DNA of 64,000 nt, taken from positions 62,001 through 126,000 of the forward strand of contig JAYWIR010000086.1 of NCBI GenBank assembly GCA_036172245.1, given 5' to 3'. The translations under genes were made by a program, and so were the position numbers. A model generated the notes under the pieces. That model worked only from the letters and a program-made list of their open reading frames with translations, had not been told where the DNA came from and searched no databases. Shown in pieces: positions 4,601 through 27,119 of the stretch. The DNA comes from Raillietiella orientalis. Its lineage: Eukaryota. Numbering within the stretch: position 1 is the stretch's first letter; each line of letters opens with the position of its first letter.

Positions 4601-4949
4601 CCGTTCTCCCCCCGCCGGCGCGCCTTCCGAACGTGCGCGGGCGCCGCCGCCACTTGCTCGCCGTCTCGGCGATGCTTCCCGGCTCTTGCCCCCGTTCTCC
4701 TCTCTCCTCCCTGGCTGCTGCCATTGACCCTGCGCGCAGGCACCGTCCGTCTTCCGGACCGCGGAGGGGAGCGGAGAGGGGACCCGCCATCTCTCGCGCT
4801 CGCGAGCGATGGCGGGGTCGGCCCAGGGGCAAAGGGACCGCCCCCGGTGCACGCCGGTTCGCATCCCGCGCGGCCGGCCATGCGCGAGGGGCCAAAGGGG
4901 GCGAGACATGATTCCCTCCCGAGAGCCCCTCCGCGCCAGCAGCCGCGAC

Positions 4950-5300
4950 CGCCGAGTCGAACACGTTTGTCGGCGCCCAGCGGCGTCCCCACGTTAAAGA
5001 CCGCCAGTGGGCATTTCGACACGCGTCCCACTCTTCCGGGTTTCCTAGAGACCGGAAGGGGACGCCCTCGAATTTGCTCTCTGGCCAGGATGGAGTGAGC
5101 TGCCGCAACTGCGACCAGAGAAAGGAAGGAGAACTCGCTCACCGCTCCAGGATCTCCACCGAACGCCGCGGCAACTGCCATGGCTACGTCCGCGTCGCCA
5201 TCCCACCCACTCCACTCCCACCCTCTCCCTTCGAAAGTGCGAGTCGCCATCCCCTGAACGACACCCTTACGCGCCACCACCCATCGTGTAGGAAAGGTGC
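4950..5300 (+). mobile_element. Decayed LINE ORF1 (gag-like zinc knuckle) fragment
   Basis: FDTRPTLPGFLETGRG, then after a frameshift GQDGVSCRNCDQRKEGELAHRSRISTERRGNCHGY, a decayed CxxCx4H knuckle pair typical of Tx1/L1 ORF1. Confidence 0.4.
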
Positions 5301-8300
5301 TTGTCTCCCGCCTGGCTCTTTCCCTTCCCCGGGTGCTTTACCATTCCCCGACCCTCCCTGCCAACCCGCTCCTTCCGGCTGAGCCCGTTTCCTTGAGCGC
5401 GCAGCCAAGAGGAAAAAAGGGGATGGCGGGATGTGCGTGCAGAGACCGGCACGTCGTCCGCGAGACGACGCGCTCGCGCGCTCGCCGTGTGTTGCGACGG
5501 CGCTGTGGGCGCCAGTGCTCAGCTCCTGCCAGGAGCCGCGCCGCTGAGCCACTTCCGGACTACAACAGGCTCCTCGGACGCTGCGTCGAAAACGGCAATC
5601 ATTCCCGGCACCCTTCCGCCCGTCTCCCCCCCACTACCGGCGACAGAAGGAAACTCCTTAAGGATTTCGTGTGCCAAGGCTTTTTTCTTGCCTTTCGCTA
5701 CTTGTTTAGGCGTGCCGAAGGGGGGAGAGGGGAACGCGGAGAAGCATCCAGGCCGCTGCGGGCCGGGAAAGGCTGCGATGACCGCTGCATCCCGGGGGAA
5801 TTTTCCCCCGATCCTTCAGCTCGGTCTCTCTTTCCGGGCATCCCGGAGGCACGCAGCGCGCGCGCGCTCCTCCACTGGTTCTTCACTGTCGCCAGGCTCA
5901 CGTCGGGTGGACTGCAGAAGGACGGCCCGTGCGTGCCGATCCACGGGGGCGCCGTCGACTCCTCGGGAGCGTCGGAACCGGCGTCGACGGCTCCCGGAGG
6001 CGCGCGCGCCGCGTTTCGCAAGCTCCCTCGCTCCTACGGGAAGCGACCACCAGCCTCCGCGCGAACTCTCGGATCGCAAGCGATCCGAGGAACGCTGGGG
6101 CCGAGAGACCCGTGGTGCCCTCGCTTTCTACCCTCACCCGCGAGCGTCTGTGGGGGGGGGGGGGACGGAGAATGGAGGCTGCGAGTGGCTGCAGGAGCAC
6201 TTGGGATCAACAGGTGTGGCGACGACCTCCCTCCCCTTGCGGACCTCGCAAAGCCACGGGGCCAGCGATCGGCGACGGAGCTCAGCAACGCTGCCACCGG
6301 GTTTGCCACGCGCAGGAGCGGCCGCTCTTTGCGGCTGGTCCCAAGGATGCGTGGTTCTTTCTTCTTCCTTTTCCTATTTTGCTCCCCTCACCCTCCTCCC
6401 TCCCCTTCTCTTCTTTTTCTTCCTGTCTCTCTGAAGAGGGCAGGAGACCCAGAAGTACGGAGTTTCCTCCGTCGGAACGAAAAGCAGCACCTTCAGCGGT
6501 CGCCTTGGATACCGACGGGAAAACGTCCAGGCGACCTTCCGCAAAGCTCCGGAGTCCCGTGGCGCCTGAAGGATCACGTTGCCTTCCCCCCCCCCTCCAT
6601 CCTTCCCATCAGCGCGTGCAGAAACGACGGCCCCACGGGACTCCACCCCCAGCGGAACCGAGGTCGAGGCGGGTTGCGCTCTTCGAGCAGTTTTCGGGCG
6701 GAGAGGCGCGCCCACCGTCCAAAGTTTCCGAGAGCCTCCCCCTGCCACTTCCAAGACCGATCCAAGGACTGCGTTCCTGCACGATTCCGGGATTTTCGTG
6801 CGAAAGCGTCACTCGCGTGTCTTAACCGGATGGCGCGTGTCGCCGTTCGGTTAAGACACGCGGTGCACACTCCGTGTCGCCGCGGAGTGTTCACCGGGAG
6901 GAGGAACGTGAGAAGGGCAAGTTCGCGGCGGCAAGGGGCAAGTGAACAGCTCCCTTCTCTTCCCTCCCACCCCTTTCTCTCTTCCTCTTCTCCGTAGGTC
7001 TGCACGAATCCTTTTCGGCAGTCGGAAAAGAACTCCCTTACCCGCGAGGGGGAAAAACACCGCGACTTGGAGGCAACCGGGAAAACCAAAACCGGTGAAC
7101 CCTACGGGGAAGGATAGGGGGGGGGGGGCAGGAGGGAACAGCAACTGGGTGCGCGCGCGCGCGCGTTACTCCCCCCATGAGAACCGTCAACGCGAAGTCA
7201 TTTTTCTGCAATCACGTGTGAGTTTTTACCAAAAGTCGTGGCGACGTCACGTGCAGGTCAAGACTAAAGAGATCATTCCGTGCGCGGGCTGATTTGAATA
7301 TTTGGCGAAAACGGAAAGAACGGAAAAACAGCAGCAGCAGCGACAGGCATCGCCCGCGCGATTTCTACCCCGACGACTACGGCGAGGCGGATCGCCCACT
7401 TGAAAAGTGGGTTGGTCGGTGTCGCTGCCTACCGCTAGGGGGCTGCCCGGTCTTTTGCACCGCAAGGCGGAAAAGTTGCTTCACATTTTTCCAGCCCAAA
7501 ATGTGTGTGCGTCTTTTCTTTTTTTCTTGCAATTCCCCACATTCCGTTCGATTAATCGATCCCGCGCTGTCTGCCCTGCAGCATGGGAGGAAAAGGCAGG
7601 CGTGCTCGGATCCCTGGGCAATCCGTATCAGCTCCCTGAGTGAAAGAAATTCCTAAATTAGCAGTGATTTCGTAATTAACACCGAGCAAGTGCGGCTGGT
7701 TAGCTTTTGGGCCGCCCGGAGAACGCGGCGCACGCCGCGGACGTCGGGCAGCGGCGCTCTTCGCCCACGCCCGCCGCCGCGAGAGGGAAATGAGCAGGGG
7801 TGTCAGCTCTCCGATTTTGCCAGAAAGCCGAAAGTTCCTGTTCTTTCATAATGTGAAAGTCAATACCATATTAATCAGCGAATGGTTTTAATTTGACATT
7901 CCCGGTCAGAAATCACTCAATAAGGATCGATGATAAATCACCCAAGGTGATTCAGCATGAACGGGGGCTGAGTGGGTGGGCGGGAATTGTTCGTTTACGA
8001 AGACACACGGCAGCAAATCCTTTTCCCTTTTTTTTGGGGGGGGGGGGAGGGGAGGGGGGGATTCCTTTTCCCTTTCAGTGGGCTCTGCGTACTCACCATC
8101 TCGGCGGTTTTTTCTTTCTTTCTTTTTTTGTGTATGTATATGTGTTGTTGTTGTTTTCCTCCCGGAAACAAGAACTGCAATGCCGGGGGAGGGGGGAATA
8201 AAAATAAAAAATGGGATTTTGCCGTCGTGGCTCACCTATCCATTGTTAGCCTTCTCATCGTCTAAGGGTGAAGCTCTTCCTCTAAGCTGCTGTTAGCAAC

Positions 8301-8777
8301 GCTGCTTTCCAAGCGACGAGTTGCCAGGTTCGCATCCTGAATTTGTGAAGTTGTTGTTTCTCCCGTTTTTTTTTCCTTTTCTCTCCTTTGGTTTTTGCTT
8401 TCGCTTTGTCCTTCTTCTCCCCGTGCCCTTTTCCGGGCTCCCTATCGTAAAGAGCTCGATTTCCGGGCGACCCCAGTGGCATGCGCTTCTGGAACCGTTT
8501 CCGTTTGAAACAAGATGCCGAGAACAACCGAAGAAAACCTTCCTGGTCTGCTGCGTCCGTGCCCGTGTATCCTCCCTTGTTTCCCTGCCAATTATTTTCC
8601 AAACACTTTGTCGGAGGAGGCGATTCCAACCTTGCAAAAGCGGCTGCGGACTTCTAGGTGTGGTTTAACCTTATTTTCACTCTTGTTCTCTGATTTGCTC
8701 ATAAATGTCTGTAAGAGAAACACGGTGATCCATTATTATCAGCTGTGATGAAACACAATCACGTCTTTCTGAATCCC

Positions 8778-8816
8778 TATAAAAAGGTCGTATACACGCA
8801 CTGGAGCCAACAGTTG
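8778..8816 (+). promoter_or_regulatory. TATA box and initiator-like element of the cuticular protein gene
   Basis: TATAAAAA at 8778-8785; ACAGTT (arthropod Inr-like) ~32 nt downstream at 8810-8815; ATG at 8962. Confidence 0.75.
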
Positions 8817-8961
8817 CGAGCAGAGGTGGCTAGACAGTGGGCACATCGGAGCAAGCAAGAGCAAGAGAACGTCGTCGGTTCCCGGAAGAAGAAGAAAAAA
8901 AACAAAAACCGAATAGCAATAACAGCGACATTTTTTTTTCTTCTAAAAAAAACAAACAAAC

Positions 8962-9803
8962 ATGAAACTGCAGGTAGAGGAAAAAGAAGAAAAAAGATTG
9001 GTGTTCCTGCCTCGCAATGACGTGACGTGTCGAAAAGCCTGAGATGCCGGGAAGGATTGTTTTTTCGCTTTTCGATCTGTTATGATCTGGACGTAGGCCG
9101 GAACACCGTCTTTTTTTTGTTGTTGTTATTGGTGGTGGGGGTGGTGGCGGTGGTCGTCGTCGTTGTCGTCCCCTGGTTGTGGGAGGGAAGAGCAGGGAAG
9201 GGAACTCATCCCCTTGTTTTCTCAGGTACTCCTTTCGGTGCTGACATTAGCAGCTGCCTTCCCTCAAGACTACCCGTCCTACAGCTACAAGCCCAAGTAC
9301 AAGGACCCATCGTACCAAGACGAGTACTACTCCGTAAGCCATTCGTCCTCTCTCTTTTCCCGTTCCCGCTCCCCCCATCTCCCATCCCGGAGAGCGACAG
9401 GCGTCGACGAAAATGCCTTTTTCCTCCCCAGGACGAGCCCAAGTACGCCTTCGAGTACGAAGTGAAGGACGACTACTATGCCACCGACTTCCGCCATCAG
9501 GAAAGCCGCGATGGGGACTACACCAACGGTCAATACCAGGTGCTCCTGCCCAACGGGCAGCTGCAGACCGTGACCTACACCGCCGACGAATATGGCTACC
9601 AGGCTGACGTGCAGTACGTCGGAGAGCCCAAGTATGACTACAAGTACCCCTCGTCCAAGTACGACGGCTACCCCAAATACCTCCGGAACGAGTACGAGCC
9701 CTCCTACCCGAAGCCAGTCAGGTCTCCCTACGAACCATCTGCTTACCCGCCCGAATACGACGCCAAGCCCAAGTCCTACAAGCCGGCCTACAAGAAGTAC
9801 TGA
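8962..9803 (+). CDS. Cuticular protein with Rebers-Riddiford chitin-binding domain (RR-2 / pro-resilin-like), 163 aa, 3 exons
   Basis: Exons 8962-8973 (MKLQ), 9226-9333, 9432-9803 joined by GT-AG phase-0 introns. Signal peptide MKLQVLLSVLTLAAA; R&R consensus YAFEYEVKD..DFRHQESRDGDYTNGQYQVLLPNGQLQTVTYTADEYGYQADVQY; Tyr/Pro/Lys-rich tail; strong GC3 bias. Confidence 0.95.
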
Positions 9804-9944
9804 GCCTCAGGCGTTTTCCTCCTCCCCCTCCGCCCCGGCGCAGCCATCGCCTCCGCTCGACGCGGGCGAACGGAAGCCGCCCGGAGACGGGTTCTAGAAT
9901 GGAATGTCCGCCCGCGGGAGTGAAAAGCAAAAAACGCCCCTGGC

Positions 9945-9950
9945 AATAAA
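9945..9950 (+). terminator. Polyadenylation signal of the cuticular protein gene
   Basis: AATAAA ~140 nt after the TGA. Confidence 0.65.
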
Positions 9951-12589
9951 AGCGGAAAAGGCAAAACTGGAAAACCAAAAAAAAAAAGGAGCGAACTCGG
10001 TGGTCCGGGAGGGGAGGAGGAGGGAGGGAGGACTCGCCGCCACTCGGTCCTGAAGGAGGGTTTGAGAAGAGGAAGAATGTCTTCTCTCAGGCGGGGAAAG
10101 GGAAGAGGGGGCGACACCGCTGCCCTCGGGCACGACCTCGGTCCGCCACGAGCAGTCGGCATGGTCGCCGTCTCGGAAGCGAAAAACCGCGCGTGGACGT
10201 CCATACGACCTCCTTGGAGCCGGCCACTCCCGGATCCCACCGTCTGGAGTTCGCCACGCCTTGCTGGAAAGAACAAATGGTGAAGGGGGAGGTGCGAATG
10301 GAGGCTCTCCCTTCTCGACGACGGCCGCGTGGCCGGGAGAAGCGGGACTGCGAGGCGGAAGGCATCCCCTCACGCACGCACTCACACAGTCTACGCGGCC
10401 AGCCCAGAGTTTCCCCCTCCTACCCATCACTCCCTCCGCTCCCTTCCCTGCTAGGGTGGCATCCCTCTTCTTTCGTTGAGCTCCCGGGATGGGAGGAAAA
10501 AGTGAGAGGTCACTCGTCAGCCGGTGCGCCGCCTACGCTGCTCCATCCCCAGCCGCTGCTCCCCACGGCAGGAGCGGCCGGCGCTCCCGAGATGTCTGCC
10601 GAGAATGTGGCTTGACGGCCGCGTCCGTTCCGAGGAAGGGGGAACAGCGGGAAGGACTCCGCAGATTTTCCGGGAATCGAACAGGGACGTCGAGACCAGA
10701 CGAAGGAGAGAAGGAAGGAAGAGGAGGCTGCACCGTTTACTTCCGGCAGAAGCAGAAGGGAAGACCCCCAGCATTTTCTATCTTCGGAGCTGCATTCGAA
10801 TCCCCTGGAAAAGGAGTGCACGGTGATGCATGGCTTGCCCTTGATGGGATGGGAAGGCGGGAGGGAGGAAGAGAAGAGAAGGGAAGGAGAAGGAAAAGAG
10901 GAAGAGGAAGAAGAGAAGACAGGAGGAGGTGGACATCTCTTGACCGTGTGTTCTGGCACATGAACCTTAGAGTCCAGCGGGGAAGTCGTCCTCAGACTTT
11001 CCCCTAGGGAGTTTCAGGGAAAAACCAAGGGTCACTGCCACTGCTTCGTTTCCCTTCCTCCCTCTTCCGCCTCATCGCCCCTGTTTCCTTCTACTGCCTC
11101 TCCTCCTCTCCTTCCCCCACTTCCTTCCCTTCCTTGACCCCGAGAGCTGCAGGTCTGCCTGCTAGCGGCGCTCTTTGGATGTGGGCGACTCCATCTTCGA
11201 GAGACTGGCAAAGACCCGAGCTGGAAGAACTTTCTCCTTTCCTCGTCCCCTCCATCGCTTCCCCGAGGCCGCGGACTGGACTCCTTTTCCCCTCTTTCGA
11301 ACTCATGAGGTCTCCAGGTCGGCAGCAGCTGCGGATCCCTCCAGGACAGCCGACGGTGGCGGATCGAGCAATGGGAACTTCTCCCTCCCGTCATCAGCCA
11401 CGAACAGGGATCCTGGAACCGAGACGTAGCTCTGGAGGAGGAAAACCTGAAGATGCCGCTTTCCTTGGATCGAGGTGCACGGTGAGGTCATGACTGTGGG
11501 TCATCACAAAGTGTAGTCCGTGAGCCTGGCGTTCGGACCCTCTCAAGACGCCTCTGCCCTTTCCAGTGTCTTCCGGATCACGTGGAGGCTTTCCTGTCGT
11601 TCGGCTCGTAAGTCCTTGAAGTTGCTGCCCAAGGGCAAGTAGGTCCTCTAGAGGGAGCAGGGAAGCGGGGAGGGAAATTCCAGACGAGTTGTCGGGGACG
11701 GACGACGAGCAGCCAAACGTCCCGCCGCGGGGAATCGGCCGTCCTCGTGACCGCTGGAAAGAAGGGAGACAAGCAGCAGGAAGGGCGCAACGGTGTCATC
11801 CAGGGAAGATGTCGAACCAAGCAGAGGTTCCCTCCCGCCTCCGCCCTTGCTGGATATCACACGACCCAGGTCGCCGCTTCTGCGCCGCCGACTTTCCTTC
11901 CGTCCGAGGTCAGACCGTCCGCTTCATGGCAGCCGGCCGCATTCGCGGACTCCACTGCGGACGGGGAGGACCGCGCCCTCCTTCCCACGTCTTCCAGGAT
12001 CCTCCCGAACAACCGTAAGCCTTTTCCTGCGAGCCCTCCATCCCTTCCTTTTCTGTGCCACTTCATGGGTTCCGCCTGGTGGCGCGCGTGGCCCCGGGCT
12101 GCCGACGTAGCCTCAGGCGGCAGGTGCCCTGCAACGTGCGCACACAGCGCGCTGCGGCAGACAGCACCGGGAAGAGGGGAGGATGCGCTGGGTCCCGTGT
12201 TCTTTCCTTCCCCATGTTTCCCAGTTCCGCCAGGCTCCTGTTTCCCCGGCGACGACGTTCTTCCCCTGGACATCTTCGTCCTCCGGAATGGGAGGAACGC
12301 AGGCGGTGGCCGCCGCCGCCACCGCTACGCAGAGCGCGGAGGTGCGTCCCGGACCCTTCTGAAGGGAGAGCGGCGGGCTCGTTCCGGCGTTCCCGAGGGA
12401 AGGAGGGCAGCAGGCGGCATGGCGGTCCCCGTCGGGCTTGGAAGTCCGCGCAGCGGAGGCTCCATCCTCCCGAAGATGCCGTATCTGCCGATGCCGTGAT
12501 CCTCCCTGGAATCACGGCGCAAGAGGAGTTGGGCCGACTTCCTCAGTGCGAAAACATCAGGCCGGCGTCTTCAACAAACGGTACGTTTG

Positions 12590-13210
12590 ACAATCACAGT
12601 GACGGCGGCAAACAAAAGGTAACGTAGCAATGACAGCCGTAACTGGTGGGGACGGTGGTGACCGCTAACCTTTGGCAACGAGCGATAACGCAGCGATGGC
12701 GATTTATTTTTTTTTTTAACTGGCGAGAACGTCAATAACTACCGTTGCTGAGAGCGACCTCAACGGTGCCAAAAAAAAAAAAAATGTGCTTAGGGACCAC
12801 GGTAACCACGATAGCCATTGGGCACGGCTGAAAAGGTAGTAATTAACGTAACAGTGATGACGTTAACTGTTGGAAAGAGAACGTGCTTGAATATTCGATC
12901 GAATTGACAGTATCGGTAGTGCTGTAAGCATCAGGACCAAAAGTAGTAGTATGGTAGGGATAGAAACGAACAGAAACATCGATAGCAGCAGCTATAAACA
13001 AAGTTTACTTTAGTGACAGTGGAAAGAATCAATGATGCTACCAACGGCCACACTGATGGCAAATAACAGTAAGCAATAAAAATCATTGCTTCCCCTTATA
13101 GCAGGATTGCCTGTAGTGATAAAAAAAAAAAAAGCGATAACTTTTTTGTGATATAACGATGGATGGCAACAATAGGAATGACTCATTAATGATGACAATT
13201 CATAATAACA
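12590..13210. repeat. Cryptic, degenerate triplet-periodic low-complexity tract (GAT/AAT/AAC/AGT/GGT-like)
   Basis: Recurrent gtaac, gataac, gtgatgac, agtagtagt, aatgatg, cataataac words; no convincing ORF. Confidence 0.4.
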
Positions 13211-13249
13211 CATAGATGGAGATGTTTCTTGCTCCTGGGTTCGCCACAC

Positions 13250-14050
13250 TCTCTGCGGAAACGTAGGTGGCTTGCACTTGGTGCTCAGCGCAAGCCACCC
13301 AAGGGAACCAGAGTCGCTCTGGTAGTATTCAAAAGCGCTCTTATGTCGAGATGGTAACATACTGCGCCCTCCCTGGGAAGTTTCAGGGAAAGGCCAAGGG
13401 TCACCTGAAATTTCGGCCCTGCGCGGTTGCAAACACCCGGAAGGATTGCATTTGGAGTTCATCTGGAACTACAGTCAATTTAGATCCCTCAGACAGCCCC
13501 ATGAGCAGTCTGTTCTCCACTTTTTCTGGATGAGATCCGGAGTGTCCCGTGCTGGTGACATCCTGTGTTATCCCTTAACCCTCCTACGTTTGCGGCGGAT
13601 CTACTCTGGACATCACACATGTCCACTCCATGCTCCTGCAAGGAAGATATCAAAGTTGGGGTATGAGGTGTGTATTTCGAGCGGTGCTCCCGCTTGCATG
13701 TCAGGAACACCAGGAGCGTAGTTTTCCGGAATAAACAAGCAAACAAAAAGACAGTTGAAATTTTCCCTCGAACTACGTGATCCCGTGATGGTGCGATATG
13801 GAGCTGTTAGGTACTGGAAGTGCGGCTGGGACCACGAGAGGGGCCAATGAACCAACATCACGCAAATGTGATATCTTCCTTTTTTGCAGTAAAGAACACT
13901 GAAAAATGCCTCAATTTGCGAATGGGTATCATTCCTTCTTGCTAAAGACTAGAAATTTCTAAAAGCTCGGATCTTCAATAATTCAAGCCATCAGGAAGAC
14001 ATACAAGACGGAAAGACGTCGAAATGATTAGTCATGGGCCTCGTTACCGG
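13250..14050 (+). mobile_element. Decayed L1-like ORF2 fragment (post-RT region)
   Basis: LRQPHEQSVLHFFWMRSGVSRAGDILCYPL resembles the L1/Tx1 motif R.IF.FxW.G...V...L..P; frames interrupted. Confidence 0.35.
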
Positions 14051-15335
14051 GACAACTTTTTACCTCATAGCTTAGGCACTTTGGACATTAACCACGTTAC
14101 TGACAAAGGCTGGTAGTTTCTTCGTTTTACAAAAAAGACTGTTTTGATGAGCAGTGAATTTGGCGTTCTTAAAAAGAATACCAATGATAAGTCAGTGAAT
14201 TCAAATTTGATAGCAAAGCTAGTGGAAAAACAAGAACAAGTAGCTGAGTACTTTTGAGATAGTATCAAAAAATTTGAAGCTTTGTGGATGTTTCCTTTTT
14301 TTCTTATTGAGATACTGTAGGTCAATTCGAATTCAACTACGCAAGTACATTGGAGATTAGATTGGAAATAGATTCCAAGATACCTAGAAATCAGTCATCA
14401 GAAAGAAAGAGTTTTCCTATTGTTACCATCCTCACTTTATTGCATGATGACACTAAACGTGAAACTTTTTTATTCTAATTGGTTCCAATTCTGCTTCTAA
14501 ATTTTCATTTTTTCTCCAGTTAGAACTTTGTTCTGAAACATATATTACTGTATTCTAACAATGTAACTAGCATAGATATTTTTACAGCTTATTTGGTACA
14601 AGATAACTTTCCGTCTGTTTCAAATGAATTCATTAAATTTTCGTTATTAGTATTGTTCGAAAAATGGTGTGATTTTGATTTACTTGTGTCTGCACAGGTA
14701 GTGAACTACTTCTAGGCTTGGCACACCCTTTCTAAATTTAGTGGATTTGTTTACACCTCTATTGTTACATTGGCTTCCTTATTGCAGTCTTGTTGAATGA
14801 GGTGTTTTTTCTTTAGCGATTTCGATGCTGAATTTTGGCACTGGTTTTCTCCACAGAAGCAGATGAAATCTACATGCCTTATTTTTCATCCATGAGTAGC
14901 ACAATTCATCTATGTTTTGCTAACAATCAACTTTACCGGTCAACTTTTAATTTATTATCTTCATGTAGTCTGTTTTTTTTAATTTGGATTACTATGATGT
15001 CTTCGTTACGTAAGCGACTGATAGCCCTGTCAATCCGCATTATTTACATGTTGAACTTGAAATGCTTGAAAAGCTACTACTACTATTTTCACTTACGAAA
15101 CTCAGCTATGAGTGAAGTATCATGACACCGACAAACCAGATAGATGTATCAGTTTGTTTTGTATGATCCTTATTATAAAGTATGTGATTTTTCGAGAATG
15201 CCAATCAGTTTCAATGATACATTTTCGTTTAGGTTTTGTCAAAAGTAATTTCGTGAAATCGGAAAAGTTTCTCATTAACTTAGACAGTACATAATCTTAG
15301 ACAAATTCAAGTCCATTAATGTATGTACATGTAAT

Positions 15336-18300
15336 ATGGTTACCATAATGGATTGTTACGATAACATTATGGGAAGTTCTCTCACGTTAGAAACATCTTT
15401 AAAGTTTGAAAAGGCATTGTTTGGTTCAAATAGTATCGTGCAATTAGAAAGAATACCGGATAGTTGGATCGGTTTCCCGAGCCCAGTGAAACATCAGAAA
15501 CATAATTGGGTTGGAGACAGTGATATTGTATCTTCAGAAACAGAAGAAGAAAATATGTCATCCGAAGTTGTTTTGAATAAATCTTGTGATCATTGTGAAT
15601 TGGTTGAACTAAATAGTAAAACATCTAGTTCCAAAAGAACGAAAAAAGACCCAATCTCAGTAAAGCAACACAAATGCGGTCATAGTGGAAAATCTATTGC
15701 AGCTTTGTTAAATGAAGTTAGAAAGATTGCCCAAGATTTGCCAAAAGAATATTTTCAGCAAGTATTTAACATATTCTGGCAGTATTTCTGTAAAAAAAGC
15801 AATCCCAATGATCAAATAGTAATTAATGATGTGTGTTTGCACCCTGATCAACAGATCAGACAAAGTTCACATGCTGTTATGAACAGTGACATGAATACAG
15901 TTTTCACTATTCCATTTTTCATGAAAGAGAACAGCCCTGTTGATTCTCTTCTTGAAAGCCCTGTAATGAATCATAAATCTTCAAAATATTCTAGTAAAAA
16001 TGGAAAGATGCATTCAAAAGTGTGCCAGGATTCAAGCGAAAGCCAACTCATGCAGCAATCAAAGAATAGGAATGAAGTTAAAAAGAAATTTCTGAGAACA
16101 GAAAAGCAACCCAAATGTTCATCTACAGAATTGCAACATGATTTTTTGGAAAAACGTTCTATAAAACAAAAATATCTTGTCAGGGAAAATGCAGTCAACA
16201 GAAAATCATTTGAAGATGCTCTTACAAATAAACTCTCAAGAAAGGTCTCATCTAAATCTAAAAGATCTTCTGAGAATGAAAAATTGAAGTGTGTTCTTCC
16301 AAGTAAACAAATGAAAATTAAAAAAGAAAATGTTGATGTGCAAAGTTTCAACTTTGCACCCAATAATGATTTAAAGAAATCAACCTCCAAAATAATTAAC
16401 ATCAGAAATGTGTCATTGCATCCATATGGAAAATCATCGAAAAGCACAAAATTATTGTCTTCAGAGAAACAGTATGTCGAAAGTGGCGAAAATGTTCACA
16501 GACCATTAGATGTTGACTTTCTGATACATCCATCAGAAACCACAGATGCATTTTTTGAACCATTCGGTAAATCGGTGGAAGACAACAATTTCTTACATAT
16601 TGTAAATGTACGTGGGAGTGAAAACATTGATGATGAAGATAGCATGGAAGTGCACATGACCACCACTCTAAATTGTGATGAAAAATTTAAAACAGACAGT
16701 GCATTGCAACCAATCATTTCGAATGATGCAAAACAATCTCTGTTACAAATTGACACTGCTTTGAGAGAGACATATTCTGTCAGTGATGAGGCTATGAAAA
16801 CTTTGCCAAAATCTAAAAGTGAACCTTTACATGAAGAAAATTCATGTTCACTGATGCTTAGGAATAGTCCTCCCAGTGATAACACAACTGTGAAATTGAG
16901 AGAAATATCTGTTTCTGATTCTAGTTGTGGAAATTCATTTGACGAGACATCTGCAACAGATAGAGAAACTGAAAGTGAAAATAATGCATTAACAAATGTG
17001 AAAGATGCTTCTTGGGAATGCACCGTCTCAGCAAATGGTCTTAGTCATTTTAAAATACCAAAAGTAGAAAAGAGGAAACCTGTTCGTGCTTCCCCTCATA
17101 CAGAACTTGACCATCAAAAAATTGATAAATCTGTTTCCAAATTGTGCCCAGAAATGGAGAAAAAAGAAGCATGTTCTACAAACCCTACTAATTCAGCAAA
17201 TCATGACAAAAATTTACATACATCATCTGAAGAATCACATAAGTACATGGGCAAAGTACAGCAAAGAACAGTGGGAAGCACTGGTTTTTTGAGAACCGAA
17301 ATGGCAGGACAGAGATGGAAAAATTCATTTCGAAACAAAAATTCGCGAAATCTAGCAGAAACAAGTGCTCATTTGACAGCAGCAGTTCCACCTTTCCGGA
17401 CAACATCTGTAGAGCAAAAAGGATTTGAAAAAAGTCAGGATTTCAAATCTACTTCAATGTCAGCTCCAATGCATGACTATTGCAATACAGGTATAAGTTT
17501 TCTTCAACATTCAGGTTTATATTGGTCAGTGTTCTTCAGGGAGCAAATCTGTTTCTGAAGAATATTATGCTCATAATCAGGCAATGTGTCATTCCAAAAC
17601 AAGTACCCAGAGTTATGAAAGTAATGATGAACTTAATTTTCAAAGTGAGGATTCTTCAAAAACATCTGCTTTATTGTTGAACACATCAGCTACTAGTGCT
17701 ACAGTCTTCAAAAATCCAATTTATCCTGTTTCCACCTCTGTATACAATTCCAGCTTCTCTGCAAGTTATTCCCCAAAGTCAACTGTTTTTTCACAGAAAC
17801 AAAAACTGTTATCAGAGGAGTGTAACTGCAAACCACATGTGTGTGTACACAAGAGTGAAAAGGTACAGTGAGGTATCTCTGGAATCTTGTTTGAACTTAG
17901 GTATTAAAGCAAAGAACTGTGGAACAGATTCCACTACCACATTCTGTTTTACCTATGGAAAAAAGGATGGAAAGAGTAGATGATGATGATGTCATTTCTT
18001 TATTTGCTGACACCCAGTTTCTTGATGACTTCCACAATGAAGAACAGAGGTTCTTATGCAAACCAGCATCTGAAGATTTAGACAGGTTTGCTGATAACAG
18101 ATCAATAGAAAGAAACCTTAAATTGGTGGAGTGCATCCTTTTATTTTTTTGTTTTTGTGATTGTTTAATTTTAGTTTGTGTACCTTGCATTTGTGTAGGT
18201 AGCAATCAATTTGAAATGGTTTGTTGTTAGGTACGAAGTTGCAAATAAAACTAAAGAAGAGAAAGCCATTAGTAAAACCATGTTACCTCAGCTGGAAGAT

Positions 18301-21300
18301 AAAGCTAAGTTTCGAAATTCTAGAACAGCAAAACAAATAAGTGGAAGTTCCACAATGCACCTTATGGAGGACTTCCCTCCTGTTAAACAGACAAGTAATA
18401 GTGTTAACCAAAAAGAGTTGAATACTAGTCATTTCCCCAATACTGTAAATTCATCCCCGCAAGCCTGCCATTCCTTATCATCGTTTTCCCATCAGTCTCT
18501 CATTCTGTCTTCCAGAAAGTGGCAGGTTAGTCATTTTCCTTTATTTTTTGTTTACATATAATTGGGCTTTTTTGCATGCATGGTATTATTGGATAATCAC
18601 GTCGTTTTTGTTCAAAGAATTTCCTTTTCAGGACATAATCAACAATCTAATGAGTCAAGATACCCACCAGGTCAATAGTGGCTGTTGTGCATGCATTTGT
18701 GAAAATATCCCTAACCAAGTGCTAGTAACTCAAGTTCTTATTCCCTTTCTGCATCTCTGTATGCAACAAGATCTAGGGAAGAAACAGTACGAAGTTCTGA
18801 AAGTTATGAAGGAACGTGAAGTGTGTGATCCAGTCCCTTATGAAATGCTTCTCCATATCTTCCATCACCCCCACAAAAATTTTCGATTCGTGTATCATTT
18901 CCGTGCAGAAATAGATGAAGTAGCCCGCCTTGTAATTCAGAATAATGTCTGCTTGTCTGTAGAATACTTTGAATGCCTACTGGAACTTTTACAAATTTTG
19001 GTTATCAAAGAATTATTTTTAGAAGTACTAATGTTGATGTGTCATTTGAAAGTTCCTTTGCCTTACAAAATCCTTAGGCGTGCATTTTTTTTAGATTTAT
19101 TCAATGAAAAGCAGCATCTTCCACGCCTCTTGGATTTCCTCAGATACTTGGTAGCTGAGTCTTATTTCATTTCTTGCAAACAGTTGTTTGCTTGGCTTCT
19201 AGAAAACTTATCCGCCAATTCAGAAGCTTGCATTGAGATTAATGCTATTGTCAAACATGTCTTTCCATTTATGATGGAATCTCATCCGTTGGCTGATAAT
19301 GCAGTGTACATTACCTTCGTAGTGGGCAAATCAGAGACTCCCAACACTTGCTCTTCCAAAAATAATGAAACAAACATATCAGGACCCAATCTTCCAGTAG
19401 TAGCTAAGCCTTATGATAATGAGGAGGTCATTATCCAAAGAGCAAAGAAATATTTGAGCACAGATTCCATTAGCAACTTATGCAGTTTAATACAAGAAAA
19501 TATAAATACAGGCAATGTTGCTTGGTTTAGCGAAGCACTGATAGATAGCAATAGCCCACTAAAGTTCTTGGATGTCTTGTATTGCATGTGTGGTAAGTAG
19601 ATGTTTGTAAATGTGATCTGCTAGGTCAAACATTGTAATTGTATGTTCTTTGACTTTACTGTTTGAATTAGTAATGGGATAATTGTTGACTGTCCTCAGG
19701 AAAGGATGGTTTGAAAGCTGATTCTCAGATGAACACCTTCTTCTTTGATGTGGCAGTAGCACTGGTGGACCATTTATACAAAGCAAGGCAGTATAAAGAT
19801 TGTTACATCTTGTTGCAGGAAGGCATTTGGAGATTTTCTATGCAATATGAAGCTTTTCAAGTTAGTTCAAGCAGTGCTGCTGATGCTAATTGTTATGTTT
19901 ATATGTTTTGCAGAATGGCTCTGCAGATGGTGTGTTTAATTTTGCCCTAATGGAATGCAAAGTTCTGCTTGAGAATGGCATTTGGGCTTCCTGTTTGGAC
20001 AAACTAAAAAGTGGGTCCTGTAGGCTTATGCTTTCTTTTTCTCACAAGACTTGAAACTGAGTTCAGTTTAGACTCCTCATTGTTTTCTCAGTGTTATTGT
20101 CAGCCAGCATTTGATTTCCTTGCCATTTAGTTTCCTTTTGAATTACAGTTGTCAGCACTGCAACTTGATTGCCTTTTCTTTTTTTTTTTTCTTGTATCAG
20201 TGCTCTCACTCTTATTGCATTGATATTTTATAGTAAATATTTTGTCATTTTGTATCATCATCGAGGTTGTTATTACTAATGTTTGTATTCGTTTTTTTTC
20301 CCCTCCCTCATTATAATGCATAAAAGAGCACTTCTAAACCTTCATGAATAATCCTTTTTTTTTTTTAATTCCTGTTTGCATTGGAAGATATTTTTCATAC
20401 CAAATTTTTTCAATGCGATTTATCTTACATTTAAATTTCTCATACCTATTGTCTTTGTAAACTATGTACTAAATTTGCTCAATGTCTGAGCAGCTGCTCA
20501 CTATCAAGAATCGGAAATTATAATGATCAGCTATCAGGAATCACAGAGCTTTATAAATTCTGTATTCCTATAAAGAGCTACTTTATTTATAAATAAAGTA
20601 GCTCTTTATAGAATACAGAATATCTGTATTACTGTTCTATAATGCATATTGTTGAAAGTTGTTTACATCCATAAGCCATATATCAACATTTCACCTTCTG
20701 ATGTGCTGCATCAGTAACTTGCATAAAATAATTTGGGAGCTGCATATTTGTGGAATTCCTCACATCTGCTCTTCACTTTTCAGGAAGTCTGCAAATCCAC
20801 TCCCAGGAAAATTCTGAACTCCTTGTTGTGTTGGAAGAATTTATCCATAAGTGCATGGAGAACAACAATGTCACTAAAGGAATCATGGGATTCAAAACTT
20901 TGTTGCATTTTAAGAATCAACGAGGTGATTTGACTTTTACTGAATATGAGAGCTATTTCCTGTATTCTTGATGTCATTTGTTTCCTAGATTGGACAGCAC
21001 TGTACAATAAACTAATGATCTGTGCCATCAACTTGGATGTGGAGATGGCTGTCTTGGAATTGGAGCAGTTCAGACATGCAGGTTGCTTGGATCTGTACAA
21101 TTCAGTAATGCGTGGTCTGATTATTTATTTGAACAATAAATCTGGGCATTGCTGTCAGACTGTGTGCAACCTGCTGTTGGAAGATGCTTGCCTGAATGGC
21201 ATCTATCCACAGCAAAAGGTAAAGTGCCCCAATTGCCTATTTAGGAAAGTTGTGCACATATGGGTGCAAATCATGATCTTTTTTAGGAAGAAGGATCTCC

Positions 21301-21695
21301 CCGATACATTTTGCTGTGGTCGTATCTTCTTGCTGAAGAGATTCACATCATTATCAAACACTATTTGGGTACATTATTTGAGGAACAGCTTATTGAGACA
21401 CCTAAAGTATTTATCAAAATTGAGAAACGTGAAGTAAGTGATTCATGTTCTGGTTTATCCATATATTGGTATATAGGTTCCTTTTTTGGATCTTGCTGGC
21501 TCCCTTAATCTCTTTCATAATTATCCCGGGAATTCGATGTCCGATTTCTTTCAACAGTTGGCTTGTGCTTTGCAAAAATTTAATCCACCCTTGCGTTACT
21601 ATTGCACAAGTTCCAGCACTGGAGATATTGTATTCTTAGATTTCTCTATGCTACTGTGTCACAAATCTTCCCTGCTGAATAAGGTAGAGCTGTAA
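15336..21695 (+). CDS. TOPAZ1: TOPAZ1-like protein (long Ser/Lys/Glu-rich N-terminus, helical TOPAZ1-type C-terminus), ~11 exons
   Basis: In-frame exon chain 15336-17490, 17540-17862, 17901-18125, 18199-18525, 18632-19592, 19700-19860, 19914-20010, 20784-20924, 20989-21218, 21287-21433, 21477-21695. C-terminal motifs IKELFLEVL..KIL..HLPRLLDFLRYLV, VMRGLIIYL, GIYPQQK..ILLWSYLLAEEI and NPPL match my recollection of vertebrate TOPAZ1 (LLKEVF..KILL..VPALIDIFCKLV, LRRLITSL, GCYP..LLIPSYLSEIEM, DPKL). Start codon, the exon 3/4 junction and a possible missed exon in 20011-20783 are uncertain. Confidence 0.7.
20557..20621. repeat. Near-perfect 65-bp palindrome in a TOPAZ1-like intron
   Basis: Perfect 44-bp palindrome CTATAAAGAGCTACTTTATTTA|TAAATAAAGTAGCTCTTTATAG (20568-20611), extended by ATTCTGTATT/AATACAGAAT with one bulged C. 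Confidence 0.95.
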
Positions 21696-21841
21696 AATGG
21701 AACTTAATGCCTTCACTCAGCATTTGCTTTTAGCCCTCCCTCTCAACCCTAAGAAGAGATATCCCTCCCCGAATAGGGTATCCCAGACATTTTGCTGCAT
21801 ATTATTGATGTCAGGCTCTTCCTGTGTAAAACCTGTCTTTA

Positions 21842-21847
21842 AATAAA
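21842..21847 (+). terminator. Polyadenylation signal of the TOPAZ1-like gene
   Basis: AATAAA ~145 nt after the TAA, followed by a GU-rich element (ctgtgttcttgtggtgg). Confidence 0.7.
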
Positions 21848-21894
21848 GATGTTTGAATGACTGTGTTCTTGTGGTGGCTCTTCCCTGCTACAAG

Positions 21895-21920
21895 TTAACT
21901 CTTGTTTTTGGTGTTTACAG
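21895..21920 (+). promoter_or_regulatory. 3' splice acceptor immediately upstream of the FNTA start
   Basis: TTAAC branch-like motif, U-rich tract cttgtttttggtgttta, CAG ending at 21920, 17 nt before ATG 21938. Confidence 0.6.
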
Positions 21921-21937
21921 GTAGACATGTATTAAAC

Positions 21938-23215
21938 ATGTTGCATAGCCAAAAAGTGGCACCACTTAATATGACAGATAATTCAGGTTTTGATCATGAA
22001 TACCTTCTTTTCAAAGATCGTCCTAATTGGGCAGATGTGCAACCTATACCTTTAGATGATGGGCCTAATCCTGTTGTGAGCATTGCATATAGCGAAAAAT
22101 GTGAGGAAAGAATCTTTCTTTGCATTATGACTGCTTGTAGTTCAAGATGTATATGACTACTTTCGTGCCATTGTCAAGAAACAAGAGGTCTCAGAGCGTG
22201 CACTTGAGCTTACCTGTGAAGCTGTCCAACTGAACTCTTCCAATTACACAGTTTGGGAATATCGGTGGGTAGCATGAGCATATAGTTTATATACCATTGA
22301 ATTAGGCGGATGCTACTTAAAAAATTGAAAAAGAATTTATGGGCAGAATTGCGATTCCTAAACGACATGATTCATAAAAATGCTAAAAACTATCAAGTTT
22401 GGTGAGTAAGGTATCCATAAGCCCAGTCGAAACTTTCTTCAGGCATCATCGGCAAAAAATAATTGAATATTTGCAGAATCCAGCTTCAGAATTAGATTTC
22501 ATCCAAAAAATGCTTCAAGATGACTCTAAGAACTATCATGCTTGGCAGCATCGACAGTGGGTCATCCAAACATTTAAGTGAGCACCTTAACAAGCAGAGT
22601 ATAGTACACTAATGCAGTCTGTATGAAGGTGAACTTGATTTCGTGGAAACATGTTTGCAAGAGGACATCCGTAATAATTCGGCGTGGAACCACCGCTTTT
22701 TTGTTATAAAATCCACAACAGGATTCACAGCAGATGTGATCAACAGAGAGATTGTATGGTGCCAAGCTTCAATAAGAAAAGCCTGCAATAATGAGAGTGC
22801 ATGGAACTATTTAAGAGGGTAGGTTGATGATGTATGAGACCATCATGCCCATTTTTTGCAGAGTTCTCAATCAACGAGAAAATGAACGAAGTCACCAGGA
22901 TGTTCTTGAATTTTGTGATGAGTTATACAGGAAACAGGAAGAGAAGCCATATGCTTTGCTTCTTGCATTTTATTTGGAACTGTTAATGGAACGTCTATCT
23001 GAAGGCTGCAACAACTTTAACTCAGATCTACAACTTGCTTATAAAGTAAGCTACGGCAGGGCAGCTGTAACAGTGCATAATAATCATTCTTGTAGTTCTG
23101 TGAGCAACTGCAATCCATGGATAGCATACGCATTAGATACTGGCAGCATATGCAGAAGGTACTCCAGAATCTCTCCTACAAATGCTGCCCAGCAGCAGAA
23201 AATGTGTCACATTAG
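21938..23215 (+). CDS. FNTA: Protein farnesyltransferase/geranylgeranyltransferase type-1 subunit alpha, ~340 aa, 7 exons
   Basis: Exons 21938-22100, 22141-22264, 22306-22401, 22443-22577, 22618-22818, 22862-23045, 23096-23215 sum to 1023 nt in frame. Motifs [34 protein letters not shown] and PFTA repeats [58 protein letters not shown]. Alternative start at 21971. Confidence 0.96.
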
Positions 23216-23222
23216 TATGTAC

Positions 23223-26200
23223 TCAACAAACCTGTTCAACCACCTCACCAATCTTTGATATACATTGTATCAGGGCCTTAATAAAGTAGGATTCTGAATT
23301 GATCACAGCATGATGAAGAGTTTCTAAATATGCACTTCTGTACACCCCAACATTTCTATAAAACCAGAATTCGTCATCAATTTGACTGCCAATCATACTA
23401 ATCTTACCTTTGCTTAGCTTGTCCAAGTTCAGTTTTCAGCAAATAAAGCAAAGTTTCTTGAAAGTATTGTAATATCTGCCTGGATGGCTTAAGGAGTTTT
23501 TCTTCGTCATTTGCTATGGAAGGCAATGTAGATGCAAGAACAAGCATTTTTTTTGTTTGCAGCAGTGTCTGTAACACTTGATGCCACTCCCTTCTTTTTG
23601 CAGAAATGTTTGAGGATGCTAGTCCATCACATGAGTGCTACAGATTCCTTTTAATGTTAGCTTACTGATGGCCAAGTAATTCAGAAAAGCTACATGCTTC
23701 AAACAAAGATCCAGCTGTTCAACTGGTTTTTGCAGTTGTTCAAACATTTCAATTGCTTTGTTGTAATGTTTGTTTGCTAGCTGACGCATGCCACGAACAG
23801 GTTTTTTGTTGACTTGCTTCCTATAGCAAATCACCTGTGAATGAAAAGACACTTGACATGACCTACTGGTATAGGCTTTGGTAAAGCAGAGTCATGCGCA
23901 TGTGGATGGTAGCTATGGCAAACATGCTGGTATCCTGATTAATGGAGCTTAGTGCATCTGAATGGAAAAACCTTAAAGATTTCTGTAATAAAGTACTGAT
24001 TTCTTGCTCCTGCATCACATCATTCTACAAGTAAAAATTTTAGCTGTGTATAAATTTATAATAACTCACATGCACATTGGCAGAATAAGAGTCTTGCATC
24101 AGAGTGGCCAAAGCCAAATATGTTGATGCAAGCTGCCACCTCACAGATTTGCTGACCCCTTCTTGCTGTGGACGGTTGCTCAATTCTTGTAAACTATGTT
24201 CATAACAATCAATAGCCTATTCAGTAATCATTGTTTCATTATTAAGTAATTAATCTATTACAGCATACCTGCTTATAACAGTGTTTCTTTTGCATAACTG
24301 TTGAGGAGAGATTTATTCCATTTTTTTCCAAACTGAATGCTTGCAACTGAAGCAGCTTTCCAGTGTTGTAATAAAGAAGAGCAGAGTTAACATGATCTTC
24401 ACTTTTCTGAAAACACTGTAATCCTTCCTGAAAATATTTGTGACTTCTCCACAACAATTCTGTTACATGCTGACCACTTCCTAGTTTGTTATCAGTAGAC
24501 AACGTTATTCTTTTTAGTTACCTGCACTCTTATCCATGTAAAACACACCTAATTCATTGCATATATTTCCTATACAGCACAATAGGTGTGAACTACCACT
24601 TCCCAAAATATGTAAAGCCTTTTGATAATAATCATAACTGTGGCGAAGCCCTTGCTCCAAAGTTGCAGGAAACAGCAGCTGTTGCTGTGGTTCTGAGAAA
24701 AACATAGTAATATAGGAATATCTATCTTACCTTCATGAGTAGAGAGGCTAATCATTTGTTTAATTTGTAAATCCAATTCAGTTAGAGTTTTGAACTGCTT
24801 TCTGAACTCATTAGTTTTTGCCCACCTCTGGACTAAGAAAAAAAGATTATCACCTATCATTTCTAACGCAAAGCTTTTCTGCAGAGTCATGCTGGTACTG
24901 ACTTGTCCTCGCAATGCATGCATGCATTGGAGTGCAAGATCAAAGCACCTCATGCTGTTGCCTAACTGTTGCTCTCTTTGATAAGCTTGACCCCATAGTA
25001 AATACACTGTAGTTGCTTTTTGTAGCAGCCTGCAAGCTAATCGCCCAGCCCAAGATCCACATGTACGAACATGTGATGGAAATGAATTGGGAGCTTTCTG
25101 TTGTCCATTTGTGGATGATTGATAAGCACATGGTATGGGAATAAGAGGTTTTTCACTTGCAACACAGCGATTCTCAGTAAGATGCTTAGGAAGCAAGATA
25201 CCCAGCAATCCATTCAACACATGTTTTTGGGAAAGATAACAGCATTCCGATATATCAGGCACTTGCTGATACTTTTCATAAACATTTTCACATGCCTGAA
25301 ATTCTGAAGAGGAATCATTTGATAATGACCGGATATCTATTGAACAGTCTTCACAAATCTTCTTATCCTCATCAACAGTTATGAGAGTTTTTGCTTTTAG
25401 AAAAGCAGACTCGAGATTCATGTCATTGGGAACATAGATGTCAGCCAGCATAAAATGGATTTCTGCCATAAGCTGTTCCCAATGATTTATTAATCACACA
25501 AGTATGCAAGCAACTCACCTGCTGATGTCTGCAAGAATCTAATAGTTTTAGGCAGTTTGTCAAGAGAGTTATAATCATCCTAGGATTATGACTTGTTTGG
25601 TTCAGATGCATGTTATAGGCAATTCGGAATAAAAGCATTGCTACAGGTACTGTGAAAGGATTCAAAGTCTCATCTTCTAATGTTTCTGGACACAAAGATG
25701 TTAGGTCATACAACTTCACTATATCGTCATCTTGTGCTGATATCCCTTCATCAAACTATAACATGTACAGAAAATACAGACCTTTGAACAACCAATAAGT
25801 ATGCCCTGATTTGGTCACATTACATTTTAGGAAAGATAGGATATTCTTTGCCACATTCTGAACAATTCTGAAAGATGAATGAAACAAGCACTGCAACAAG
25901 CATACTTACTGTGGTGAAAAATGGCAATTTTCTAAATGGGGCAAATCTTCAGACTTGATGAATTCATACTTCTGCACAATTCCATCTAAATGATAACACA
26001 TGAGAATCTCAGGGATACTACAGATTTGATTATCTAACCAGTAATCTAAACCAGTGAGCACAGAAATAGGTTTCTTCATATCTCTGAAACAAGAATGGAT
26101 TTCTAACAATCACTGTTAAGTCAGTAAACACTAACTGTAGTCTCAGGCTCACACATGGGTGTGCACCATCACCAAAAATGGGCAAATTGGAACCAATGAG

Positions 26201-27119
26201 CATCTGCAAATTTTCAAAGGTCCAAAGAACATTCCGAGCAAACTGCTGCAAATTTATATTATATTCTTTATGATAATTGACTTCACAATCCGAAATGCTT
26301 TCGATTCCATCAACTTCCTGGAGAAAAAGATGAACAAAGACAGTTTTGAAACATCAACAAACTAGTTACACTGCAAGATTCCTTTTCATCTGACATGGCT
26401 TCTTCTGATGCACTATACTGAAGAAATTTCATTTCCAGATTTTCAACTTTACTGATATCCTTACTGGAGATGGATGGTTTTGAAAACCACTTACTCTGGA
26501 ATGAATGTATAAAATAAGTTCAACAGAAGTTATGAATTACCTTTTTCTGAAGCAAACTGATGATATTATTCTGAGAAAACCACTCAGATTTGTAAGTTTG
26601 AAGCAAGTAATGATTAACGTCAAAGTTATCAACAAGCAAAGTATTTCCAATTCTGTGCACAATCATACTAATCTGCAATGTTCTTCATGAGTACTATTTC
26701 AACATTTAATAGGTTTTGTTCACAAATACCTGTTCATTATTGTATGGTATTTTCAGCAAACGTTTGACATTTTCTGCATCTGATATTACATCCACTTCAC
26801 CCACATATTCAGGGAATATAAAAGCCATTTCCCAACTGAAACACAATAACAGAAATGATATTAAAAAAATTTGGACCACGTACCTTGAAAACAAATTTTT
26901 CGCAGAGTTTTTACGTGCAAAATAACGTAGTTTTTCATTTATATCAACGGATATATTTGGAGGTGGAATGTTTAGATCTGTATGGAGTTTCAGTTCATAA
27001 AATCTTGTAGGCTTGACGGAATATTTGACAACCACACTTGAATTGTGGGGCTGAATCTCAGCTTGTTTTGGTTTGATTGCGGAATCGCTTTCTTCTGGTT
27101 TTTTTCTGTTATGCTCCAT
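23223..27119 (-). CDS. EDRF1: Erythroid differentiation-related factor 1 homolog, ~1062 aa, 16 exons
   Basis: Exons 27119-26884, 26835-26730, 26672-26541, 26495-26370, 26317-26136, 26083-25910, 25867-25782, 25736-25519, 25472-24731, 24692-24522, 24480-24269, 24216-24070, 24024-23867, 23820-23666, 23618-23408, 23355-23223 sum to 3189 nt in frame. Motifs VDVISDAENVKRLLKIPY, ISMIVHRIGNTLL, WTFENLQMLIGSNLPIFG, PISVLTGLDYWLDN, GHTYWLFK, DIVKLYDLTSLC, NPFTVPVAMLL. Confidence 0.93.
23280..23285 (+). terminator. Candidate FNTA polyadenylation signal inside the last EDRF1 coding exon
   Basis: First AATAAA after the FNTA stop (~65 nt downstream). Confidence 0.55.

Follow-up and report, generated by a model that had tools for sequence, protein, structure and literature searches.

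FNTA (farnesyl/geranylgeranyl-transferase alpha) is probably the second of two genes in an operon that is resolved by spliced-leader (SL) trans-splicing, a reading to which we assign a probability of roughly 0.6 on the basis of the DNA sequence. In the proposed mechanism, the polymerase would start in a CpG-containing region near 14-15.3 kb, read through the upstream gene and continue into FNTA. The upstream mRNA would be cut and polyadenylated near position 21860, and the uncapped remainder would keep about 60 nt comprising a branch point, a U-tract and a CAG acceptor. A capped spliced leader, made elsewhere, would be trans-spliced onto base 21921, and FNTA would then be translated from the ATG at 21938 or, past a two-codon upstream open reading frame (ORF) at 21927, from the ATG at 21971. 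The window, i.e., the whole stretch of 64,000 nucleotides that was analysed, corresponds to G000:C86:62001-126000 in an assembly of 210 Mb and 491 contigs, and all positions count from the window start unless another locus is named.

Genomic setting and scoring of splice sites

The window has a GC content of 55-72% except for an island at 14-36 kb, AT-rich and depleted of CpG, in which four genes lie. The contrast between this island (14000-36000) and its flanks (1-13500 and 36000-64000) is sharp and was found similarly at about 20 other loci; the genome shows two states, with AT-rich, CpG-depleted housekeeping islands of about 35% GC lying inside CpG-undepleted DNA of 55-72% GC. From the CpG-depleted gene islands it appears that gene bodies are methylated in this compact parasite genome. 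Furthermore, 54 COX1 matches are spread across many contigs, representing numerous nuclear copies of mitochondrial DNA. By best hits, COX1 of the assembly is nearest to pentastomids (Armillifer 77% and 76%, Linguatula 75%), with insects following by a small margin at 72-74%; the organism is thus probably a tongue worm, i.e., a parasitic crustacean.

A gene finder was trained on about 470 kb of gene islands and yielded 225 predicted introns, which are the reference for all percentiles given here; the splice models are our own gene predictions. Introns of 38-60 nt make up 70% of this set and only four of the 225 are shorter than 38 nt, while the longest has 2198 nt as returned by a predictor that is biased against long introns. 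Donor sites are degenerate in this genome.

The FNTA gene and the junction upstream of it

FNTA occupies positions 21938..23216 on the plus strand and comprises seven exons, separated by introns of 40-50 nt and encoding 340 amino acids. It was identified by its PPTA repeats and by about 50% identity over about 320 amino acids to FNTA homologues in BLASTP searches. In alignments, the first residue of several insect homologues falls on a second in-frame ATG at 21971. The gene is complete and single-copy: four of five matches in the genome are this gene itself and the fifth is 29% identical. No retrocopy of the FNTA 5' end was found in the genome. Convergent with FNTA on the minus strand lies an EDRF1-like gene (a putative name) at 23232-27119, the predicted last exons of which reach 23232-23355 and overlap the FNTA 3' UTR and an AATAAA at 23280.

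The junction features all lie on the plus strand, and the AATAAA, the GU-rich element, TTAAC, the U-rich tract, CAG and ATG are present exactly where the first-pass annotation had placed them. The AATAAA at 21842..21847 is the sole one in 21500-22000; positioned 34 nt past the stop of the upstream gene, it is probably the poly(A) signal of that gene, and an AATAAA is found at most 42 nt from the stop at 11 of 36 predicted gene ends. The GU-rich element at 21862..21877 would act as the downstream element of the poly(A) site, placing cleavage near 21860, and it holds the weak GTs 21863-21874. It is followed at 21895..21917 by a candidate branch point and a U-rich tract. The TTAAC motif (21895-21899), whose branch A is separated by 23 nt from the AG end, is weak evidence, because the branch motif YTRAY is present at -15 to -32 in 23% of the 225 predicted introns. 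The CAG at 21918..21920 is the candidate trans-splice site. Its distance from the end of the AATAAA is 73 nt, and the earlier estimate of about 75 nt between acceptor and poly(A) signal therefore stands, but the gene to which this signal belongs is unproven as the TOPAZ1-like gene it was said to be. Between acceptor and FNTA, a two-codon upstream ORF (ATG-TAT-TAA, 21927..21935) is out of frame with FNTA and ends 2 nt before its ATG.

The acceptor at 21920 reaches a score of 7.5, which is the 97th percentile of the 225 predicted internal acceptors; in random 60-nt non-coding windows the best AG matches this score in 0.1% of 5000 draws. It lacks a convincing local donor. The GTs 47-58 nt upstream of it fall into the 0-3rd percentile and the best GT of the spacer, 21851 at a distance of 70 nt, into the 9th, which agrees with the initial impression that the local candidates are weak.

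The upstream gene and its true stop codon

The upstream gene was modelled on the plus strand at 15336..21808 with 12 coding exons and 1682 amino acids; the model is open with a single stop, and its start codon is tentative. A processed fragment of this gene with intact frame and 97% identity is located at G000:C19 (L002:1380-1738), originating from germ-line retroposition of the upstream-gene mRNA, and it lacks the introns 21434-21476 and 21684-21733. The first-pass annotation had put the stop of the upstream gene at 21695. Since the last intron (21684..21733, plus strand, 50 nt) is missing from the processed copy, the TAA at 21693-21695 is intronic and the real stop is the TGA at 21806-21808, with which the last coding exon (21734..21808, plus strand) ends. 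The spacer between stop and FNTA ATG amounts to 129 nt, as against 242 nt with the earlier stop. The processed fragment covers the last exons and ends at 21764, being uninformative on the poly(A) site.

No Pfam or HMMER match, including PF14669, was obtained for the upstream protein with single exons or frames as queries, and the Atlas gave a weak lead to PPR/TOPAZ1 clusters (0.76-0.80), with TOPAZ1 itself at 0.76 and rank 9. The designation TOPAZ1-like is thus unsupported, and the idea of a promoter toggling between a germline-type and a housekeeping gene, which hangs on this name, is unconfirmed. In the 5' region of the upstream gene, an acceptor of the 95th percentile is found at 14500..14519 on the plus strand, whereas the donors from 13900 onwards reach the 20th percentile at most. 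It may mark the end of an outron or of an intron in the 5' UTR of the upstream gene.

Recurrence at other head-to-tail junctions

Eleven junctions between neighbouring same-strand genes were compared. FNTA was joined by EB1-PSMB2, NUBPL-QTRT1, X-REXO2 and X-FCF1, which were met while reading housekeeping loci, and by six pre-selected pairs, i.e., UTP23-NAXD, REXO4-CNBP, PGAP1-STRAP, TEFM-SNRNP25, WASHC5-next and VHL-RUVBL1. In each pre-selected pair one gene is a Pfam match and the partner bears a putative name based on its translation. An acceptor of the 15th-99th percentile lies between stop and start at all 11 junctions, six of which were chosen for having one, while QTRT1 was found through the predictor fusing two genes via the acceptor. 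In eight of the 11 spacers there is no GT at least 37 nt upstream of the acceptor, and the distance from stop to acceptor is 23-72 nt in these. At NUBPL-QTRT1 (L128-L129, G000:C35 near 737,400-737,600) this distance is 48 nt and the sole GT would give an intron of 35 nt. At X-FCF1 (L175:660-830, G000:C3) and X-REXO2 (L170:1090-1340, G000:C1), the upstream genes of which are unnamed, the acceptor follows the predicted stop by 28 nt and 23 nt, respectively. AATAAA or ATTAAA is absent within 130 nt of the acceptor at nine of the 11 junctions; AATAAA occurs at FNTA and at VHL-RUVBL1 only, in the latter case 23 nt before the acceptor.

Genes in tandem position were also compared with other gene starts, leaving out PSMB2, which has no ATG, and the gene next to WASHC5, the start of which is tentative. 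Seven of nine tandem genes are preceded by an acceptor that equals or exceeds the internal median, versus 10 of 34 other starts, some of which are predicted; the p-value for the score is 0.0012 and is inflated, because six of the 11 junctions and QTRT1 were pre-selected for an acceptor. The number of CpG in the 500 nt upstream has a median of 5 for the nine tandem genes versus 10 for the 34 other starts (p=0.0007, likewise inflated by the pre-selection). The tandem layout is a minority in the genome, and among proteasome genes one of 14 is clearly a downstream gene. As further junctions, a Ku80 pair was sought and not located in the genome, and a search with PF04424 led to a MINDY gene differing from the one sought. 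A frame test for a leader-borne AUG gave out-of-frame overlap with the main ORF at 2, 3 and 3 of the 11 junctions for frames 0, +1 and +2, and does not discriminate between them.

A proteasome gene without its own start codon

PSMB2 is single in the genome and begins 143 nt past the EB1 stop (L079:7411-7560, G000:C50 near 1,073,410-1,073,560). Its exon opens directly after an acceptor of the 94th percentile, with an in-frame stop just before, and its first codon aligns with residue 2 of the solved yeast and mammalian subunits. Because the exon starts at codon 2 right behind the acceptor, Met1 must, on this sequence, be spliced in at an acceptor of the orphan type, irrespective of whether this happens in cis or in trans. 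Several sources come into consideration. A leader could end in AUG or NUG and supply the codon, or a local donor could do so, the very weak one available at L079:7459 having a score of 1.4, which is under the 5th percentile. Exons arising by chance within EB1 are another candidate, as is an in-frame exon of 13 codons that precedes EB1 and has a donor of the 8th percentile.

Alternative explanations

FNTA and its neighbour might share a promoter and a 5' exon near 14.5-15.3 kb; cis-splicing would join this exon to the upstream gene in some transcripts and, skipping that gene, to 21921 in others. Donors are available in this region at 14563, 14667, 14698 and 14802 (27th-40th percentile) and at 15180 and 15321 (67th and 70th percentile), and the 13-codon exon upstream of EB1 would be a corresponding structure for PSMB2. 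The intron required at FNTA would have 6.6-7.4 kb and pass over 11 introns, which stands against the longest of the 225 predicted introns. Moreover, the acceptors before the ATG of UTP23, VHL and NUBPL reach the 0-2nd percentile only, so that no non-coding first exon is evident at these upstream genes. We consider a shared first exon unlikely. The first-pass annotation had left the choice between an operon with trans-splicing and such a shared exon; the operon fits better, because the orphan acceptor recurs across the 11 junctions, including spacers too short for an intron.

A hidden local promoter in the last exons or the 3' UTR of the upstream gene would likewise produce an FNTA mRNA, either through the weak donors 21851, 21863 or 21874 or with an unspliced 5' UTR. 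Compact genomes permit promoters within neighbouring genes, which counts in favour of this explanation. Four CpG are present in 21501-21600, and about 9% of the predicted donors are as low as GT 21851; since donors are degenerate in this genome, GT 21851 could work as a cis donor, which speaks against the operon. The CpG content, a proxy for promoters only, argues in the other direction. There is no CpG in 21809-21937, and the observed/expected ratio of 0.25 over 21000-21937 (0.25-0.29 for the region in question) is that of gene bodies (0.28), whereas the three 5' regions with which the interval had been contrasted from the start reach 0.70, 0.80 and 0.96. No TATA-like box follows 21475, an unspliced UTR leaves the acceptor of the 97th percentile unexplained, and a local promoter does not account for the eight junctions whose spacers are devoid of a usable GT, nor for PSMB2. 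A local promoter is thus judged improbable. The earlier portrayal of FNTA as splice-dependent and putatively promoter-less is in keeping with its orphan acceptor and with the lack of CpG as a proxy.

Very improbable is a dicistronic mRNA in which 21684 is joined to 21921, skipping the exon at 21734 together with the poly(A) signal, and in which ribosomes reinitiate at 21938 or 21971 to make FNTA. Such a splice keeps the frame, uses an acceptor far stronger than 21733 (97th versus 36th percentile) and closes the upstream frame (...NK-VDMY*) at the TAA 21933-21935 that also ends the two-codon ORF, 2 nt before the FNTA ATG, but the processed copy at G000:C19 uses 21733, the equivalent splice at EB1-PSMB2 would create a fusion protein, frame closing is common in all three frames, and reinitiation after an ORF of about 1660 codons is inefficient, which weighs against this explanation for the essential, single-copy FNTA.

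Search for a leader RNA gene

In the operon resolved by trans-splicing, the putative leader would be encoded by an RNA gene of its own, and several searches were directed at it. The Rfam SL1 model, the only SL model used, had no match in the genome, and five of six retrieved 5S loci were scanned and contained no other RNA family above cut-off. Upstream of nine U2 and ten U1 matches no shared promoter element was found, most of the U2 matches being 5'-truncated. Four patterns combining a donor with an Sm site yielded 87, 208, 58 and 70 matches in the genome versus 77, 143, 23 and 36 in the control. The matches listed, which for the pattern with 208 matches were the first 100, included no SL RNA gene. 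Repeated matches were rejected as SL genes: those on C72 sit in a LINE-like repeat, the family on C18 shares a repeat end, and the remaining ones lie inside duplications of 0.5-1 kb. The blank result of this search is weak, because the patterns were narrow and assumed a short Sm site, while copepod Sm sites are described as longer and variable (PMC4664967). An old retrocopy of CNBP (L186:1480-2100, G000:C22), which is about 70% identical and GC-shifted, has no readable leader at its 5' end.

Two further observations were made on the splicing machinery. The top U2 matches (L015-L024) are 5'-truncated with varied flanks, and none of the nine viewed is clearly full-length. Two intron-containing SmE-like genes are present (L074 and L075, on G000:C27 and G000:C15); a duplicated Sm protein could be relevant to a specialised snRNP.

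Comparison with known systems

Operons that are resolved by trans-splicing occur in nematodes, tunicates, flatworms, chaetognaths and a few other groups. If the proposed operon is real, it would add a further independent origin, inside the arthropods and in a compact parasite genome; moreover, the annotation of the genome would have to change, because gene finders fuse such pairs.

In the SL2-type operons of C. elegans and Trichinella, most intercistronic distances are reported as 50-200 bp with medians of 124-129 (PMC7668243). The FNTA junction resembles these in having an AAUAAA, a short stretch and an acceptor before an unrelated housekeeping gene, and to this extent the first-pass comparison with the C. 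elegans layout was appropriate. Unlike in SL2-type operons, the distance from the cleavage site would be only about 60 nt, the Ur motif TAYYTT is absent from 21809-21920, and most of the remaining junctions are shorter and have no AATAAA. The layout is not specifically SL2-like. Operons of Ciona and Oikopleura and the SL1-type operons of C. elegans were described as having hardly any DNA between the cistrons, or none, and as frequently lacking an AATAAA (PMC1488885). Nine of our 11 junctions are similar in this respect, as is VHL-RUVBL1 with an AATAAA so close to its acceptor, but at FNTA the acceptor is preceded at some distance by a canonical AATAAA and a GU element, and the leader here is hypothetical.

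Among crustaceans, SL trans-splicing was reported for amphipods and calanoid copepods (PMC5111886, PMC4664967), which provides a precedent for leaders, while operons were unreported in leader-using crustaceans according to the account in PMC7986045. Among the literature matches listed, judged by titles and abstract openings, none deals with leaders or operons of pentastomids or branchiurans. In chaetognaths, 18% of the genes are stated to lie in such operons (PMC12460157). A flatworm leader was shown to end in AUG and to supply the start codon (PMC9851317). An AUG leader of this type would account for the codon-2 start of PSMB2 behind an orphan acceptor; unlike in the flatworm case, FNTA carries its own ATG and the leader is postulated. 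That some housekeeping genes of a pentastomid lie in operons which employ a leader of their own at varied types of junction, from FNTA with a full poly(A) site and a spacer of about 60 nt to others with almost none, and that an AUG or near-cognate codon at the leader end supplies Met1 of PSMB2, is a tentative extension that we regard as less probable than the operon at FNTA itself.

For Drosophila, 130 genes that share a promoter and 5' non-coding exons, 10 pairs with a shared translation start and 159 dicistronic pairs were reported (PMC4528330). These arthropod genes are like the proposed unit of FNTA and its neighbour in being unrelated, on the same strand and under one promoter. Unlike the layout found here, the Drosophila system relies on cis processing only and predicts no strong acceptors in spacers shorter than an intron. 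Set against these systems, the FNTA junction is a well-formed candidate operon junction and one of a class that recurs in this genome.
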